A stretch of DNA of 24,396 bases, taken from the NCBI GenBank assembly GCA_033762295.1, contig JANRLW010000016.1, positions 1-24,396 of the forward strand, written 5' to 3'. The DNA is from Capsulimonadales bacterium. GTDB taxonomy: Bacteria; Armatimonadota; Armatimonadia; Armatimonadales; Armatimonadaceae. Below, piece by piece: positions 3,001-9,000 of this stretch. The position numbers were made by a program. Position 1 is the first letter of the stretch. The number at the start of each line of letters is the position of its first letter.

Positions 3001-6000
3001 GACAGGTGTAAATACGCCGGAAATGACGTCCGCCAGCCGGGCGATCGGAGCCCGATGACCCTGCGCCTCCTTCACCAGGCGGACGATCTGTGCCAGAACC
3101 GTATCGCCGCCGACCCGGGTCGCGCGAAATCGGATCGCCCCGGTACGATTCATGGTAGCCCCGAAGACGTCCGCGCCAACGGTCTTCTCCACGGGCAGGC
3201 TTTCCCCGGTCAGCATCGATTCATCGACCGTGGTCCTGCCCTCGACGACGACGCCATCGGTTGCGATCTTCTCGCCCGGACGGACCAGCACGATATCGCC
3301 GACCAGGACCTGCGCGATCGGCACGTCCGTCTCCCGACCGTCCCGCAACACGCGCGCCGTCTTCGCTCGCAACCCGATCAGCTTACGAATCGCCTCCCCG
3401 GTCTGCCCCCGCGCCCGCGATTCGAGCAGGCGGCCGAGCAACACCAGGGCGATGATCACCGCCGCCGCCTCAAAGTACACCGGAACGGAGTCGCTCATCG
3501 GCATCGCCGAGTGCGGCGCACCCCGTGTCGGCGGAACGGCAGGAACAAACAGGAAGGGGAACAGGGTAGCCACGGTCGAATAGAGAAAAGCCGTGCCGGT
3601 TCCCAGCGAAATGAGCGTGTTCATGTCGGCGGCACGGTGCCGGAACGCCGCCAGAGCCGCCCGGTAGATCGGCGCCCCCGCATACAGGACGACCGGAGCC
3701 GTCAACAAAAACTGGACCCCGTTCATCCCCGGAAAATCGATCCGCCCATGGGACATCGCCAGTACGAGGACGGGCAACGACAGGACCGCCGCCACAAGGA
3801 AACGTCGAAGCGTATCGCGGAATTCCGCCGCATGCGCCTTCTCGACCACCTCCGATTCCTCGATCGTCTCAGCCCCGTCCGCCCGGTCGTCGGACGCCGC
3901 CCCGCTTCCCGGCGGCACGGCCGGCGCGGACCGCACGACGCCGTAGCCGGCGTCCTCCACCACCCCCGCAATCGTCGCCCCGTCGACCTGGTCGGGATCG
4001 TACCGGACGGTCGCCTCTCCCGTGGCAAAGTTGACGTTCGCGCTACGGACGCCGACCCGGCGGTTCAGCACCTTCTCGATCCGGCGGGCGCAGGCGGCAC
4101 ACGTCATTCCGGTCACCGGAAAACGGCTGACCCCCTCGCCAACGCGTTCCGCCGCGTCAGGTCGATTTCGTTCCTGCAAATCGCTCGCCATCATCCGTTT
4201 CCTATCATACTCCCCGGGGGTATATCCTTGAATGTAATATACCCCGTGGGGGTATATTTGGCAAATTGGAGGAGGCTATTTGAGGAATCGACCGAGAACC
4301 GAGCGGACCTCGGCCATCAGTTCCTCCCGGGACATCGGGCGGGCGCATTCATGCTCCGATCCCGTTCCATGACCCACGACACAGGATTCGATATGTTCGG
4401 TCAGGAGTTCGATTCCCAGAGTATCGAGGGCGGAACGGGCGGCGGCGATCTGCGTCAGGATATCGACGCAGTACCGGTCCTCATCAATCATCCGCGCGAT
4501 CCCTGCGACCTGTCCGCCGATCCGGTTCACCCGATCTTTCATCCGCTTTCGTGGTTCCGTATTCGCTTTCACGTCGTCATCATACCCCGTGGGGGTATGT
4601 TCGGCAAGGAACGAAAAAGGCCCGCAGTCCTGGCGAACCGCGGGCGAAAAACGTTCCTTAACGGAGCGTTCGAAATCTCAAACCGATTTTACCGCACATT
4701 TACGAGGGCAGACCGGTTTGATCCGTTTTCCGCGACAACCCCTCTCTCAGATCGGGGCGACACGGTAGGTCGAAACCCCGAGAACCAGTCCGAGCAACGC
4801 CCACAGGCTGCCGGAGACGTAATCGCCCAGAATCAGCCCGACGAAAAACGGAAACGCCGCGCGGTACGCCCGCATTCCGCCATAACGCAGAATTAATCCC
4901 TTGATCATCCACCCGAGAAGCGTTCCCGACCAGAGCCAGGGCATCGTAAAGGTCCCGGCCAGCGCATACCCGGTCGGGTGGAACGGCCACCAGAAAAACT
5001 GGGCACGCCCGATCGCCAGCAGACAGGTGATCAGAACGCCCGCCCCGACTCCGCCCAGGCGCGGCCAGTCCCATTTGCCCGGATCGGACATCCAGCCGTT
5101 CAGGATGTTCCAGGGCGTATTGCCCATCGACGTTCGCCACTCGTCGACATTTGCGGACGATGCGCCGAACCGGTAATAACAGCTCAGTATCGAAACCCAG
5201 GCGGCCAGCACACCGACGACGCTCGCGACCACGATGGCCAGGCCGATCTGGCGCGGTTTTAACCGGGCCTCCTGCGCCAGTTTCATCGCTTCGAACTGGT
5301 TGGGCATGACGGTCGTTCGGTAGTCCAGGTCCATCCATTGAAACTGAGTCAGTCCGACCAGATTGGCCATGCCGGGTGACTGGGTTCCGACCGTCGCCGC
5401 AATCAACTGGTGTGGGGTCATGTCCGGTCCGAAACTCCACGGCAGGCCCGCCTCGGCGCGTATCCGCGTGTAGGTGATGATAACGAGAAAATAGAGGAGG
5501 AAAAAGAGCAGGCCGATACCGGCGGACAGACCCACCGCCAGGCCGAATCCGGTCAGGGCCAGCAGGCCGATGGCGACGCCAAAGACCGCGGTCCGGTAGG
5601 ACAACGGCTCATCGCGGTCATCGAAGGTCCCCGCCGTTCCCGGCCTAAGGACGGTTCTCCACACCTGTTTCAGGTAATCCCGCATCCCCCAGAGCGAGAA
5701 CGCCGCCAGACCCAGGAACGCCCCGAGCGCCTGTTCCCCGTAATACGGCATCCGGGCAAGCGTCGGACTTGCCCCCTCGCTTCGAAAGCCGAACGCCGTC
5801 ATCAAAACGTCCTCCGCCTTGCGGACGAAGAAGAAAAACCAGGCTGAAAACGAGACGTCCAGCGGTAGCAGGTACACGACGCCGATCACCATCGGATAAA
5901 ACCCGAGTTCCATCGTGCCGATCGCGTTCCACGGCGACGAATAGAACAGACCGCCCTGCTCGGGATCGATGATCCGCAGGGCAGGTTCGCTCGGCTTGAT

Positions 6001-9000
6001 CGGCAGATACGGGATGGACGGATACAAAAACGCGATTCCGGCCAATGTCTGTAGCGCAAACGCGGTCAGAAAACCCAGCCACATCGTCTTGCTGGAAAAG
6101 AACCCCCGCGGCCCGGTTCCGGTCAGCGAGGGGCGCGTCATTTCCAGCGGCAAAATGATCAGCGGAAAGGTCAATCGCTCCTGTTCGATCCAGCGACGGC
6201 GCAGGATCGTGTTGACGCAGAGCATGACAAAAAGCAGGGCGACGATGAACGCCGACCAGAAAACGATCGGGGACAGCCAGCCGCGGAGATGTTCCGCCGT
6301 GAAGAAGGTCGACTCCCCCCGGTAGAAGTCAGGCAGGACGGACGGGTCGGGAAAGGCGAAACGCCGCAGAAACGGGTGAATCTCCGCCGCCCATTCGTTC
6401 TCCGGCGTCGCAAAATGAAATATGTTCGCAATTCCCATGTTCAGGAACTGCACCATACCGACACTGCTGATCGTGATCGACGTCGTCTGGAAGATATAAA
6501 GGAAAAGCAGTTCCGCCTGGGTGAAGGCGTGGCGCGGCAGCCATCGCTTCAGAGCGGCGTTGATGCACAGCAACACCATCAACAGAAAGACGACGGCGAT
6601 CGAGAGCGACATGACCGCCAGTTCGGTCGACTGGGCAACCACATCACTGTAGACATTCCAGAAACAGAGTATCGGAATGAAGAGGATGCCCAGCAGAAAC
6701 GCGCGCCCCGTCATTTTCCGGAGTTCAATCCTCGCCGATCGGAAGCGGATAGGTCTCCCAGTCGAGCACGACGCCCAGATACCGGTCCTTTTCGTTCAAC
6801 AGGCCGTCGTACGCGGTGGCGAGTTGCCCGCCCGGCAACACATGAGTGCGGAGCGGAAGTACCTGAAGAGCGCCGTCGACGATCATTCGCAGGATCAATT
6901 CGGCGTTCCCTTCGGTCGAAACCGTCGTGCTGTTCCGCTTCATCAGGGGAATCTTCCACTCCAGCGCCCCGATGATCGAAATTCCGCGGAAGTGGGCCCG
7001 TTTGAGCGCGACCGTGCAGTCGGACCGGTACTCGGCGCGAGGCGTCCCCAGCATCACGACCTGTCCGTTATCGGCGACGAGATGGACCGCCTGTTCCACG
7101 ATCCGGGAATCGCCGACCGCATCGACGATTACCGACGGTTGCGTACCGCCGCCGATCTCCCGGCTGCGCTTCGACCGTTCCGCTTCCGACACCGAAACGA
7201 CGTCCGGCAGGTAATCGCGGGGATCGAAGGTCGCGGCGAACCCGACCTGTTCGGCCAGGGCACGTCGCGCGGGCGACAGGTCGAGTCCGATGACCCTCTG
7301 ACCGGCGCGAGCGAAAAACTGGCCCGCAAGGTTGCCGACCTGTCCTAGACCGACAATTACCACGGTTTCCCCGAGCGAGACCCTCGCCCGCTGAATCCCG
7401 GTGATGGCGACGTTCGCCACTCGCGCCATGACGGCGGTCGAGGAGTCGAGCTCCTCCGGAACCGGGACACAGAGCTGCCACCCGGTGTCCAACAGGGCAT
7501 GCGAGGCATGGTTCAGGATGCCGTAGACCCGCATTCCCGGCTGTAAGTGCCGCGGCGCATGCGGACCGACCGCCAGCACCTCCCCGATTCCGCCATATCC
7601 CGGACGCCACGGATAGTAACACCAGGCTCCGGGCACCCGCGTGTCCGACTCCAGGCCCGTATAGTTGGCGAGTTCCGTACCCGCGCTGATGATCGTCCGG
7701 AGCGTTCGAAGCAACACCTGCGATCCCTGTGGCGCGGCAGGAAGGGAAAACCATTCGAAGCGCAGCGTCCGTTCGGCGACGATATTGGCCCGGACGCCAT
7801 CGACCACCGACGCTTCCGCTCCGGGAACGATCCCCGCCCGATCGAAGACATGGTTCATCGCCCATGAGACCGCATTCAGGCGGTCGGCATCGCTCGCCAT
7901 CGTCCCCAGGTCGGCGTCAAACGGTTCCGGTGCCACCGGTCCGTCGTACCCGATCCGTTTCAGCGCGCGGAGGAATGGGGCGATCGGAATGATACCCGTC
8001 GCACCGGGCATCTTTCGACGCATGTCCTCCTGTTCGTCGATCGGAATGCCGGCCGGGGCGTCGTTTACATGCACGTACACCACCTGCTCAGGTTTGAGCG
8101 CCAGTATATCCTCGACGGTTCCGCCCGACGTGTACCAGTGCCAGGCGTCGAGAAGAACGCCGACATTCGGTCCGATCTCCTCCGCCAGGGCCAGCATTTC
8201 GGCAAGCGTCCGGATAAACGGGTATCGCTTGCCGTCCAGCAACGTTTTCGGCCCGAGAAACTCCGTACCGAAACGGATGCCGTGCTGATTGAGAATCGCG
8301 GCGATCGGGCGCAGACGTTCGATGTGGAACCGACGGTTCGCCTCGAAATCCAGGTCGTCCGAGTAGGATAGCACCCAGGTCATGGCGCGGGTCACCCCGA
8401 GCGCCTGAGCGGCGGCCGCCTGCCGGGGAAGTTGCTCCATCCCTTTGTGCCAGTCCGCCTCTCCTGCCCGCCAATCGAACGGGATCAGAAAGCCGGCCGG
8501 GCGAACTCCGGCGTTTCGAAACAGACCGCAAACGGCCTCCGCCCCGCGCTCCTCGACCAGCGCGGTGACCTCCGGGAGGTAAAGTTCCACCCCCTGAAAC
8601 CCGCCCTGCAGCGCGGCGGCGATCGCTTCTTCCGTATTATTCACGCGTACGCCGACCGCGTACGCCGCCAGTGTCTTGTACATTCGTTGCCTCTATGAAT
8701 TTTCCGCCGGCGCATCGTCGATTCGGTTCATCAGGGAAGGCCCGATCGGAATCGGCGCGGGGCGCTGGCAGACGGTACGCATGTCGTAACGCCGTCCGGT
8801 TTCCGCCGAAACGTGTATTCCGTGCATCGCCTCCAGAACATGCAGGCCCATCTCGGCGCTGCATCGGTGAGGACGACCGGATCGCAGGGCCAGCGCCAGA
8901 TCGACGGCTCCGATCCCCCGATTGCCACGGTCGTTGAAGCCATGCGTCAGCGGAACCTCGCTCCAATCGGTCGCCCCCTGACGTTTGATCCGCACCGGAC

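Follow-up and report, generated by a model that had tools for sequence, protein, structure and literature searches.

P0001, a membrane protein of the Pfam families DUF6785 and DUF6784, is encoded in a 24,396-nucleotide stretch of DNA from a Capsulimonadales bacterium (the window, meaning the whole stretch analysed), and is probably a divergent OPT-superfamily (oligopeptide/yellow-stripe) importer of the cytoplasmic membrane that ends a catabolic operon and takes up sugar-, cyclitol- or riboside-like cargo. The open reading frame, assigned to both families in the survey's finding, was real and encodes 655 amino acids: DUF6785 spans residues 3-517 (E 1.7e-152) and DUF6784 residues 556-651 (E 9.9e-33). 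P0001 had no match in NCBIfam, and no paper naming the DUF6785/DUF6784 family was found. Rarely, an FtsX-type permease domain is fused to a family member (2 proteins).

Residues 340-635 of P0001 aligned collinearly with positions 321-616 of the Pfam OPT model (PF03169) at 23.1 bits (E 3.6e-5), below the model's cut-off of 25.8 bits; this sub-threshold match had been noted in the survey with the same residues and scores. When the OPT model was applied to 151 Armatimonadota genomes, nine of the ten weakly matching frames checked were DUF6785 proteins, and five of these nine matched at E<=0.01 (21.6-37.9 bits); the cut-off was exceeded in some family members, the best, from another Armatimonadota genome, reaching 37.9 bits with its residues 56-652 aligned to model positions 2-583.

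Profiles of the family were in turn compared with 120 true bacterial OPTs, which all share 51% identity or more with a single query and so amount to few independent trials, and with a background of 9,265 frames from this genome that lie outside the family and include all its other membrane proteins. Profile A1, built from 47 sequences, scored a maximum of 24.7 bits against the OPTs (p 3e-10), and 49 of the 120 exceeded 6.1 bits, the top score among the background frames. Profile A3, built from 150 representatives, reached 21.5 bits against the true OPTs, compared with a maximum of 7.5 bits for the background, no more than 3.4 bits for reversed OPTs and no more than 6.2 bits for block-shuffled OPTs. 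The alignments were collinear, pairing profile 155-645 with OPT 116-605 and profile 7-57 with OPT 23-73. The family sequence E-R-L-x-F-P aligned with E-H-G-K-L-x-F-P of the OPTs, T-R-I-R-A-E-x-G with A-R-I-V-G-I-V-G, Q-L-E-x-x-K with Q-D-L-K, and G-L-I-L-G-D with G-L-V-A-G-D. The nearest ESM-Atlas clusters, once DUF clusters were excluded, were 'peptide transporter' and OPT clusters (scores 0.77-0.79), which we treat as a lead only. Together these sequence comparisons, with OPTs scoring up to 24.7 bits over a background of at most 7.5 bits, support the survey's proposal that DUF6785+DUF6784 constitutes a divergent branch of the OPT superfamily, and do so independently of the survey's fold match; in this large branch, DUF6785 (approximately the first 500 residues) and DUF6784 (approximately the last 100) are a single OPT-like domain that is split by Pfam.

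The OPT signal is thin, and weak in most family members: only 4 of the 47 members of A1 matched OPT at E<=0.1, and none of 75 unselected family representatives matched at E<=0.01. In hhalign comparisons made without secondary structure, A1 gave a probability of 17% against OPT (E 0.0014) and A3 one of 1.9% (E 0.025, over just 109 columns). An internal-repeat signal was not found, and a hydropathy count gave only 10-15 hydrophobic stretches, compared with the 16 helices reported for OPTs (PMC3061005). Such observations would fit a likeness produced by chance and by the composition that long membrane proteins with many helices have in common, with a separate fold and no homology to OPTs. This reading is nevertheless very improbable: real OPTs reached 21.5-24.7 bits, well clear of the reversed, block-shuffled and genome-frame controls, the matches were collinear across some 500 residues, and the weak matches of the OPT model turned out to be DUF6785 proteins in nearly every frame checked. 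The predicted-fold match to barley Yellow Stripe 1 (HvYS1) in the survey, if reproducible, agrees with homology.

Prokaryotic OPTs (PF03169, TC 2.A.67), described in PMC3061005 as biochemically uncharacterised as of 2011, are similar to the family in length (about 640-660 aa) and align with it collinearly over nearly their full length, with L-x-F-P, R-I-x-x-x-x-G, Q-x-L/E-x-K and G-L-x-x-G-D as aligned motifs; an example is P0270 (locus L015), the one canonical OPT in the Armatimonadota sample. Both are prokaryotic membrane proteins without the eukaryotic NPG and KIPPR motifs, although the likeness is at the profile level only, at no more than 25 bits, and neither of the aspartates that are invariant in the bacterial OPT motif 'GDxSQDLKTG' is kept in the family. 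The fungal and plant OPTs of the PT clade (oligopeptides, glutathione, folate), whose cargo thus goes beyond peptides (PMC12687453), would belong to the same superfamily as P0001; they are eukaryotic and larger, at about 760-890 aa (PMC3061005), and carry the NPG and KIPPR motifs, whereas P0001 has neither.

The one structure of the OPT superfamily that the searched PDB copy contains is that of HvYS1 (7wsr, 7wst, 7wsu), a proton symporter of the elevator type whose core and scaffold domains are made of inverted repeats (PMC9691689). PDB sequences were not matched at E<=10 by P0001, profile A1 or profile A3; HvYS1 is tied to the family via a bacterial OPT profile, whose only PDB match it was (E 3.2e-15). 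If HvYS1 and the family are kin, an elevator-type proton symport mechanism is likely common to both. The proton aspartates D490 and D494 of HvYS1 (D432 and D436 in bacterial OPT) align to the non-acidic N472 and A476 in the family, near which the only conserved residues are E475 (93% acidic) and K478 (83% basic), and D446 of HvYS1 lies in an insert missing from bacterial OPTs. The cargo of HvYS1 is Fe(III)-phytosiderophore, whereas nothing related to iron chelates surrounds the P0001 gene. Strongly conserved charged residues of the family are E68, E179, R417, R419, E421, E475, K605 and D631; several of these fall inside OPT-aligned motif regions, a placement that would be compatible with a substrate or ion site.

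The P0001 gene is the last of a tightly packed operon that runs, on the reverse strand, from a TPR gene through PhyH, GFO/IDH/MocA and fusion-enzyme genes to the transporter and a terminator-like hairpin (Table 1). Gaps in the operon measure 35, 9 and 10 nt, the 9 nt lying between the end of the GFO/IDH/MocA gene and the fusion gene, and the 10 nt between the fusion gene and P0001. The longest GFO/IDH/MocA reading frame extends to 10060 and is overlapped by the PhyH gene; the GFO/IDH/MocA gene likely starts at the ATG at 9817, which is preceded by GGGAGAG. The hairpin, approximately 100 nt 3' of the P0001 stop codon, likely marks the operon end, and beyond it, just downstream of P0001, is a CsoR-CopA copper unit with its own promoter-like sites.

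Table 1. Features of the P0001 operon and of the gene row upstream of it (window positions).
Feature	Position	Strand	Evidence and remarks
Terminator-like hairpin	4620..4645	-	11-bp stem, 8 G-C pairs, T run; consensus scan alone
P0001, probable transporter, 655 aa	4747..6714	-	Pfam DUF6785+DUF6784
Fusion enzyme	6725..8683	-	AP_endonuc_2 residues 22-258; ADH_zinc_N residues 449-574
GFO/IDH/MocA NAD-dependent oxidoreductase	8693..9817	-	Domain from residue 85 of longest ORF
PhyH-family Fe(II)/2-oxoglutarate dioxygenase, 271 aa	9853..10668	-	PF05721, 108.5 bits, E 1.4e-30, 9997-10581
TPR-repeat protein	10665..11915	-	Translationally coupled to PhyH, whose ATG overlaps its stop codon (ATGA)
DUF1559 / N-terminal-methylation (pseudopilin-like) protein	12233..13183	-	Pfam; unit membership uncertain
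LacI-family regulator	13125..14186	-	Pfam
Inosine-uridine-preferring nucleoside hydrolase family gene	14397..15584	-	PF01156, 2e-53; head of row

The fusion enzyme joins a xylose-isomerase-like TIM barrel to an MDR-type dehydrogenase, and its nearest relatives are a xylose-isomerase-domain protein, IolI and sorbitol-type dehydrogenases. The closest solved relatives of the GFO/IDH/MocA protein are scyllo-inositol/L-glucose dehydrogenase and the C-glycoside oxidase DgpA, and those of the PhyH protein in the PDB are generic PhyH-type oxygenases. Further upstream, the nearness of the DUF1559 gene means little, because this genome has 128 DUF1559 matches. The row is probably regulated by the LacI-family protein; a consensus scan placed a promoter-like site at 14275-14247, upstream of its gene, and no operator palindrome was found for the regulator. 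The nucleoside hydrolase at the head of the row, one of just two genes of its own family in this genome, offers a lead to the substrate class.

Because the operon ends with the transporter after sugar-type oxidising enzymes, P0001 probably imports the nutrient that they degrade. Judging from the nearest relatives of these enzymes, that nutrient is more likely a sugar, cyclitol or riboside-like compound than a peptide or metal chelate. P0001 would be a polytopic secondary transporter in the cytoplasmic membrane, bringing in a small polar organic nutrient by cation (proton)-coupled, elevator-type movement like that of characterised OPTs; the co-encoded cytoplasmic enzymes would then oxidise, isomerise or hydroxylate it. 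Judged by what is known of OPTs, family members are probably uptake carriers, all characterised OPTs being cation:solute symport importers in the account of PMC3061005.

Parts of the row recur beside the closest homologues. An MDR dehydrogenase adjoins the transporter upstream in three of the four closest loci with readable context (the window, L129 and L130), and PhyH is found in the same three; the MDR half is directly upstream in L129 (67% identity) and L130 (61%). The L129 row also holds homologues of the TPR protein (47% identical), the DUF1559 protein (49%) and, at the same place, the LacI-family protein (36%), while in G161 a transporter homologue (57% identical) is directly followed by a nucleoside hydrolase homologue (46%). 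GFO and AP_endonuc_2 genes were not conserved beside the closest transporter homologues. The survey had placed several family members in catabolic operons beside PhyH, GFO/IDH/MocA, AP_endonuc_2 and enolase-superfamily enzymes; such a setting was seen for the window and C70 copies. The PhyH linkage held in some orthogroups only and was not above chance in the wider sample.

Across genomes the family has mixed neighbours, many of them related to carbohydrates and hardly any to peptides. This bears on the possibility that P0001 is an OPT-superfamily importer of classical cargo (oligopeptides, glutathione or a metal-chelate complex), with the neighbouring enzymes unrelated to it. Peptides, glutathione and metal-chelates are what all characterised OPTs carry according to PMC3061005, folates having been added recently (PMC12687453); a prolyl oligopeptidase follows paralog C31, and copper genes lie both downstream of P0001 and, as a copper ATPase, near the distant homologue L065. 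We consider such cargo unlikely, however, since the copper unit at P0001 lies past the hairpin under promoter-like sites of its own, no Pfam peptidase was found within three genes on either side in any of 23 loci from other genomes, and 7-8 of these loci have sugar-type enzymes, glycoside hydrolases or sugar kinases within that distance; moreover, the P0001 gene closely follows sugar-type redox enzymes, and the HvYS1 proton-site aspartates are not conserved.

The lack of conservation at these coupling residues would also suit a protein of OPT-like architecture that, instead of importing, exports, serves the LacI-controlled pathway as a sensor (transceptor) or works as a membrane enzyme, as would the housekeeping or uninformative neighbours of about half of the 13 paralogs, the rare FtsX-type fusions and the lack of a paper found to name the family. 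This is quite improbable, given that every characterised relative covered in PMC3061005 imports and that uptake carriers typically occupy the last place in catabolic-type operons, the place seen in the window, in C70, in L123 (with an FGGY sugar kinase) and in L119 (with a nucleoside hydrolase); the several conserved charged residues in OPT-aligned motif regions would likewise suit a substrate or ion site.

All 13 genes of the family reported for this genome were recovered, as 14 DUF6785 matches at 13 places, since one gene was hit in two separate parts; a canonical OPT was not found in the genome, which is 94.5% complete. The paralog identity of 28-40% given in the survey holds for P0001 against the 12 others (28-39%), but one pair is mutually 52.9% identical. 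Of 151 Armatimonadota genomes sampled, 127 carry the family (the survey gives 445 of 637) and just one a canonical OPT; none of 14 control genomes has the family. Copy number reaches tens per genome. The family's description as expanded in Armatimonadota was incomplete: Poribacteria, in which all 61 sampled genomes carry the family, have as many copies as Armatimonadota or more. The 13 paralogs of this genome are old subfamilies whose substrates presumably differ.

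P0001, the protein under study, is the hydrophobic 655-aa product of an open reading frame in which Pfam recognizes two families, DUF6785 (residues 3-517, E 1.7e-152) and DUF6784 (residues 556-651, E 9.9e-33). Residues 340-635 also align collinearly with positions 321-616 of the 623-position Pfam model for OPT, the oligopeptide/yellow-stripe transporter superfamily, scoring 23.1 bits (E 3.6e-5) against a cut-off of 25.8; the frame, both families and this sub-threshold match were part of the survey's finding, and were recovered at the same coordinates and score. Because the OPT match runs from the final part of DUF6785 into DUF6784, most of which it covers, the two Pfam families are parts of one domain.

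When the Pfam OPT model was applied to 151 sampled Armatimonadota genomes, it yielded one strong match, a true OPT in genome G094 (341.8 bits), and weak matches in 18 further genomes. Translation of 11 frames hit by the model gave nine DUF6785/DUF6784 proteins, one true OPT and one frame without a family, and hmmscan reported OPT in five of those nine. The protein of locus L017 scored 37.9 bits, well above the cut-off (E 1.2e-9; residues 56-652 against model positions 2-583), and a family protein of locus L019 scored 25.8 bits, at the curated cut-off; a 674-aa frame of a Poribacteria genome, a candidate member, reached 33.5 bits. Most members are not recognised: OPT was found at E ≤ 0.1 in 4 of the 47 sequences of profile A1 (the 13 paralogs of the genome under study, G000, plus 34 homologues), and at E ≤ 0.01 in none of 75 unselected family representatives.

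The reverse test was carried out in HMMER with filters off. Against 120 true bacterial OPT proteins, A1 gave a best score of 24.7 bits (per-sequence p 3e-10), with 49 proteins above 6.1 bits, 24 above 15 and 13 above 20; all 120 share 51% identity or more with one query, and these closely related proteins therefore amount to few independent trials. The domain alignments were collinear (profile 155-645 with OPT 116-605, and 7-57 with 23-73). Reversed OPTs scored at most 2.2 bits, and OPTs shuffled inside 20-residue blocks at most 6.2; among 9,278 open frames of G000 (at least 200 aa), the 13 paralogs scored 532-975 bits and the best of the 9,265 non-family frames 6.1. A3, an independent profile made from P0001 and 149 representatives at 50% identity, scored OPTs at up to 21.5 bits, with controls at 4.8 or below and the best non-family G000 frame at 7.5. 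Comparison with a bacterial OPT profile (A2) by hhalign without secondary structure gave a probability of 17% for A1 (E 0.0014, 550 columns) and of 1.9% for A3 (E 0.025, 109 columns). In the ESM-Atlas, with DUF clusters excluded, the nearest named clusters were 'peptide transporter' and one OPT (0.77-0.79), and an archaeal DUF6785 cluster carried OPT on 11% of its members; both are leads only.

A sequence search of the PDB with P0001, A1 and A3 returned nothing at E ≤ 10 except a chance match to choline oxidase (E 1.5), and NCBIfam held no family for P0001. The A2 profile matched a single PDB sequence, barley Yellow Stripe 1 (HvYS1; 7wsr, 7wst, 7wsu; E 3.2e-15), the sole solved member of the superfamily, whose fold consists of core and scaffold domains with inverted repeats; the survey's worry that the fold likeness it reported extends to one family only therefore reflects what has been solved. 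The proposal that DUF6785 plus DUF6784 constitutes a divergent OPT branch is supported, at the level of sequence, by reciprocal profile recognition above controls, and we regard it as very probable that the P0001 family is kin to the OPT superfamily as such a branch, and not as a member of PF03169 as currently drawn.

The aligned motifs of the P0001 family and bacterial OPTs agree between the hhalign and HMMER alignments: E179-R-L-x-F/Y-P184, T-R417-I-R-A-E-x-G423, Q-L-E475-x-x-K478 and G626-L-I-L-G-D631 (P0001 numbering) pair with E-H-G-K-L-x-F-P, A-R-I-V-G-I-V-G, Q-D-L-K and G-L-V-A-G-D, respectively. The proton-site aspartates are not kept. D490 and D494 of HvYS1, proposed as proton sites (PMC9691689), align with D432 and D436, two residues that are invariant in bacterial OPTs. 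In two concordant alignments, where a one-residue misregister is possible at this distance, these fall on the non-acidic N472 and A476 of P0001; among 150 representatives the two columns are occupied chiefly by H/N/Q and by G/A/S, and beside them position 475 is acidic in 139 and position 478 basic in 124. P0001 also differs from the eukaryotic PT clade, for which NPG and KIPPR motifs have been named (PMC3061005): both are missing from P0001, NPG occurs in 6 and IPPR in none of the 150 representatives, and both motifs are missing from 35 bacterial OPTs too.

With its 655 residues P0001 lies inside the range reported for prokaryotic OPTs, about 520-700 aa with 16 (or 17) transmembrane segments (PMC3061005). 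A crude hydropathy count found 10-15 hydrophobic stretches, compared with the 16 helices reported for OPTs; six of ten coincided with hydrophobic stretches of OPT when placed in the hhalign register, and the hydropathy correlation was 0.40 in the aligned register versus -0.27 to 0.18 in shifted ones. No internal repeat was signalled when N- and C-terminal halves were compared by hhalign, either for the P0001 family (E 0.42) or for true OPTs (E 0.062).

The count of 13 family genes in G000 (5.16 Mb, 132 contigs, 94.5% complete) was confirmed, one of 14 DUF6785 matches being due to a gene recognized as two pieces; no canonical OPT was found in this assembly. The identity of 28-40% ascribed to the paralogs holds for the twelve others against P0001 (28-39%), but not for the pair on contigs C77 and C70 (52.9%). 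When compared with 268 family proteins of other genomes, 12 of the 13 proved closer to one of these than to any G000 paralog; the paralogs are therefore old subfamilies rather than recent duplicates. The frames of two paralogs (C2:37736-41083, minus strand, and C77:43091-46435, plus strand) remain open for 470-490 codons upstream of the transporter domain; no Pfam family was recognized in these upstream parts at 1e-8, they show no similarity to one another, and they may represent either N-terminal extensions or separate genes that went unrecognised. Only two longer fusion forms were found (P0390 and P0391, about 2,130 aa), in which DUF6785/DUF6784 is joined by a permease domain of FtsX type (PF02687). 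Other genomes have family genes in tandem pairs (L069:4866-8890, L075:3527-8872 and contig C44 of G125), that of L075 having an IS4/5-type transposase in between and GH4 and GH127 genes on its flanks.

Among clusters at 50% identity, 8,314 family representatives were obtained at E ≤ 0.001. The described expansion in Armatimonadota stands, with members in 127 of 151 sampled genomes, but Poribacteria should be added, since all 61 sampled genomes carry the family in 7 to more than 20 copies each; further members were found in SAR202/Chloroflexota and, as an Atlas lead only, in Bathyarchaeota, and the family was missing from all 14 control genomes. In the Armatimonadota sample a strongly matching canonical OPT is thus present in one genome of 151 (G094), compared with 127 for DUF6785, and in this phylum the divergent branch seems to take the place of OPT.

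P0001 is the last gene of a closely spaced row on the minus strand, followed by a strong terminator-like hairpin (see the table). The PhyH dioxygenase gene of this row is buried under an over-long GFO open reading frame and is not shown by a longest-ORF list. Among solved structures, the GFO protein is closest to scyllo-inositol/L-glucose dehydrogenase and to the C-glycoside 3-oxidase DgpA, and the fusion enzyme is similar to a xylose-isomerase-domain protein, to IolI and to sorbitol-type dehydrogenases. A link between copper and the transporter was considered and rejected: the P-type ATPase and CsoR-like genes form a separate downstream copper-resistance unit past the hairpin. LacI operator palindromes were absent from three intergenic stretches, and neither Rfam families nor tRNAs were detected in the window; for expression, neither an RNA or DNA sequencing run of the operon nor any RNA holder was listed.

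Features of the window, by contig coordinates
Feature	Coordinates	Strand	Remarks
Copper-type P1B ATPase	1813-4194	-	HMA + E1-E2 ATPase
CsoR-like repressor gene	4279-4572	-	Trns_repr_metal, E 8.5e-26; precedes ATPase gene
Terminator-like hairpin, strong	4645-4620	-	after transporter
Transporter P0001	4747-6714	-	open ORF
AP_endonuc_2 + ADH_zinc_N fusion	8683->6725	-	10-nt gap to transporter
GFO/IDH/MocA	9817->8693	-	likely start ATG 9817 behind GGGAGAG; 9-nt gap to fusion
PhyH dioxygenase	10668->9853	-	108.5 bits in family search; 35-nt gap to GFO
TPR	11915->10665	-	stop overlaps PhyH ATG (ATGA)
DUF1559 pseudopilin-like	13183->12233	-	317-nt gap to TPR
LacI	14186->13125	-	in gene row
Nucleoside hydrolase	14397-15584	-	head of gene row
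ORF, 423 aa	15263-16534	-	coding-type GC3; no Pfam/NCBIfam family at E ≤ 0.01; overlaps over-long nucleoside-hydrolase ORF
ORF, 858 aa	16582-19158	+	coding-type GC3; no Pfam/NCBIfam family at E ≤ 0.01
Surface-polysaccharide set	19199-24069	-	hexapeptide-repeat transferase, Bac_transf sugar transferase, GT4 glycosyltransferase, WecG/TagA-type glycosyltransferase fused to Bac_transf part

Judging by the contexts of the closest loci, the stable core of the P0001 orthogroup is an MDR dehydrogenase plus the transporter, with PhyH nearby. In L129 (transporter 64% identical to P0001), the order is PhyH, 2-hydroxyacid dehydrogenase, LacI, DUF1559, TPR, TPR, MDR dehydrogenase (sharing 67% identity with the C-terminal half of the fusion enzyme in the window), transporter and a second Zn-ADH; L130 (56%) has PhyH, 2-hydroxyacid dehydrogenase, an MDR dehydrogenase (61% identical) and the transporter, with a convergent PhyH downstream. 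Genome G161 (57%) has no such enzymes, and a nucleoside hydrolase 46% identical to that of the window lies 18 nt after its transporter. Downstream of the L039 transporter (52%) are an MFS gene, an adenosine deaminase two genes away and a PnrA-like binding protein three genes away, and L040 and L041 (53% and 49%) display neither the enzyme nor the nucleoside pattern. Nucleoside-related genes thus recur in three of the seven closest loci; nucleoside-hydrolase genes are rare, with two in G000 and three in G161.

Across the family, the catabolic-operon context put forward by the survey was retained in part: sugar-type enzymes adjoin 4 of the 13 paralogs, but the neighbours of the other copies are varied or uninformative. 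The four are P0001 (C16) and the paralogs on C92 (ThuA, LacI), C70 (two PhyH, an enolase-superfamily enzyme, GFO and a kinase) and C77 (DUF2961); PhyH adjoins the C29 and C39 copies and a prolyl oligopeptidase the C31 copy, and the remainder are uninformative. Within three genes of the transporter in 23 foreign loci (Pfam), glycoside hydrolases, sugar kinases, sugar-acid enzymes or a sugar ABC system were present in 7-8, for example GH106, GH4 with GH127, GH20 with BNR and sulfatases, an FGGY kinase, or an enolase-superfamily gene with HpcH aldolase; a FAD_oxidored gene was present in three and a peptidase in none. An enolase-superfamily gene precedes the transporter in all 12 loci of one Poribacteria cluster, and a GH2 mannosidase in three of four loci of one Armatimonadota cluster. 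In the Poribacteria cluster of L061, a homocysteine S-methyltransferase/MTHFR fusion gene is followed by the transporter in 9 of 13 related loci, with a Cu2_monoox_C/dockerin protein and a GT2 glycosyltransferase further upstream. At the BLAST level, almost no neighbours were common to 17 non-redundant transporter clusters. Relatives of these organisms have been described as scavengers of carbohydrates in which there is little operon structure (PMC4959169), and the varied neighbours fit a versatile carrier family in such organisms.

The association with PhyH holds for the P0001 operon itself but does not generalize. Within G000, a same-strand PhyH gene lies within 3.5 kb of 4 of the 13 paralogs, where about 0.9 would be expected from 51 PhyH genes (Poisson tail about 0.013). 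Elsewhere PhyH was found within 3.5 kb in 8 of 131 transporter-centred loci, which were not de-duplicated and were searched with a home-made profile that may miss divergent members, and its density in these loci (1 per 118 kb) was no higher than across G000 (1 per 101 kb); PhyH was thus rejected as a general partner. DUF1559 and LacI were likewise rejected as a general link, and the nearness of DUF1559 equals chance expectation: 128 DUF1559 matches in 5.16 Mb predict about 0.5 per 19-kb locus, as seen near the 13 paralogs, and the pair is syntenic in the close relative L129 only. DUF1559 or N-methylation-motif genes often stand beside LacI-family regulators, as seen near C16, C29, C92 (twice) and C69.

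By analogy with characterised OPTs (PMC3061005, PMC9691689), from which its transport function, direction and coupling ion would follow, P0001 is best read as a proton- or cation-coupled, elevator-type importer that would feed the co-encoded cytoplasmic redox enzymes; the operon points to a sugar-, cyclitol- or riboside-like substrate. A more specific scheme is, in our estimation, rather unlikely as a whole. It holds that the family abandoned peptides and metal chelates to become multi-copy importers of neutral sugar-derived compounds in Armatimonadota and Poribacteria, and that the P0001 orthogroup would import ribosides or modified nucleosides, such as 2'-O-methyl nucleosides; these would be demethylated by the co-encoded PhyH dioxygenase and cleaved by the nucleoside hydrolase, and the GFO, MDR and isomerase enzymes would oxidise the sugar. 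Four leads point this way: one of just two nucleoside-hydrolase genes in G000 heads the P0001 gene row; its G161 homologue is directly 3' of the closest transporter homologue there; downstream in L039 lie genes for an adenosine deaminase and for a PnrA-like binding protein; and enzymes of the PhyH family, including a Poribacteria one, allowed growth by complementation on 2'-O-methylcytidine or 2'-O-methyluridine, a result taken by the authors to mean that demethylase activity is widespread in PF05721 (PMC12709175).

The terms DUF6785, DUF6784, PF20581 and PF20580 occurred in no paper of the literature searched, and public annotation designates the proteins 'DUF6785 family protein' or 'hypothetical'. 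Assignment to OPT would widen a superfamily in which one structure has been solved and few prokaryotic members have been characterised, and the operons of the family are concrete sources for guessing and testing substrates. The size of the family and a likely cargo unlike that of known OPTs make a bench test worthwhile; with this assignment, thousands of unknown membrane proteins would become candidate nutrient importers in two phyla of carbohydrate scavengers.
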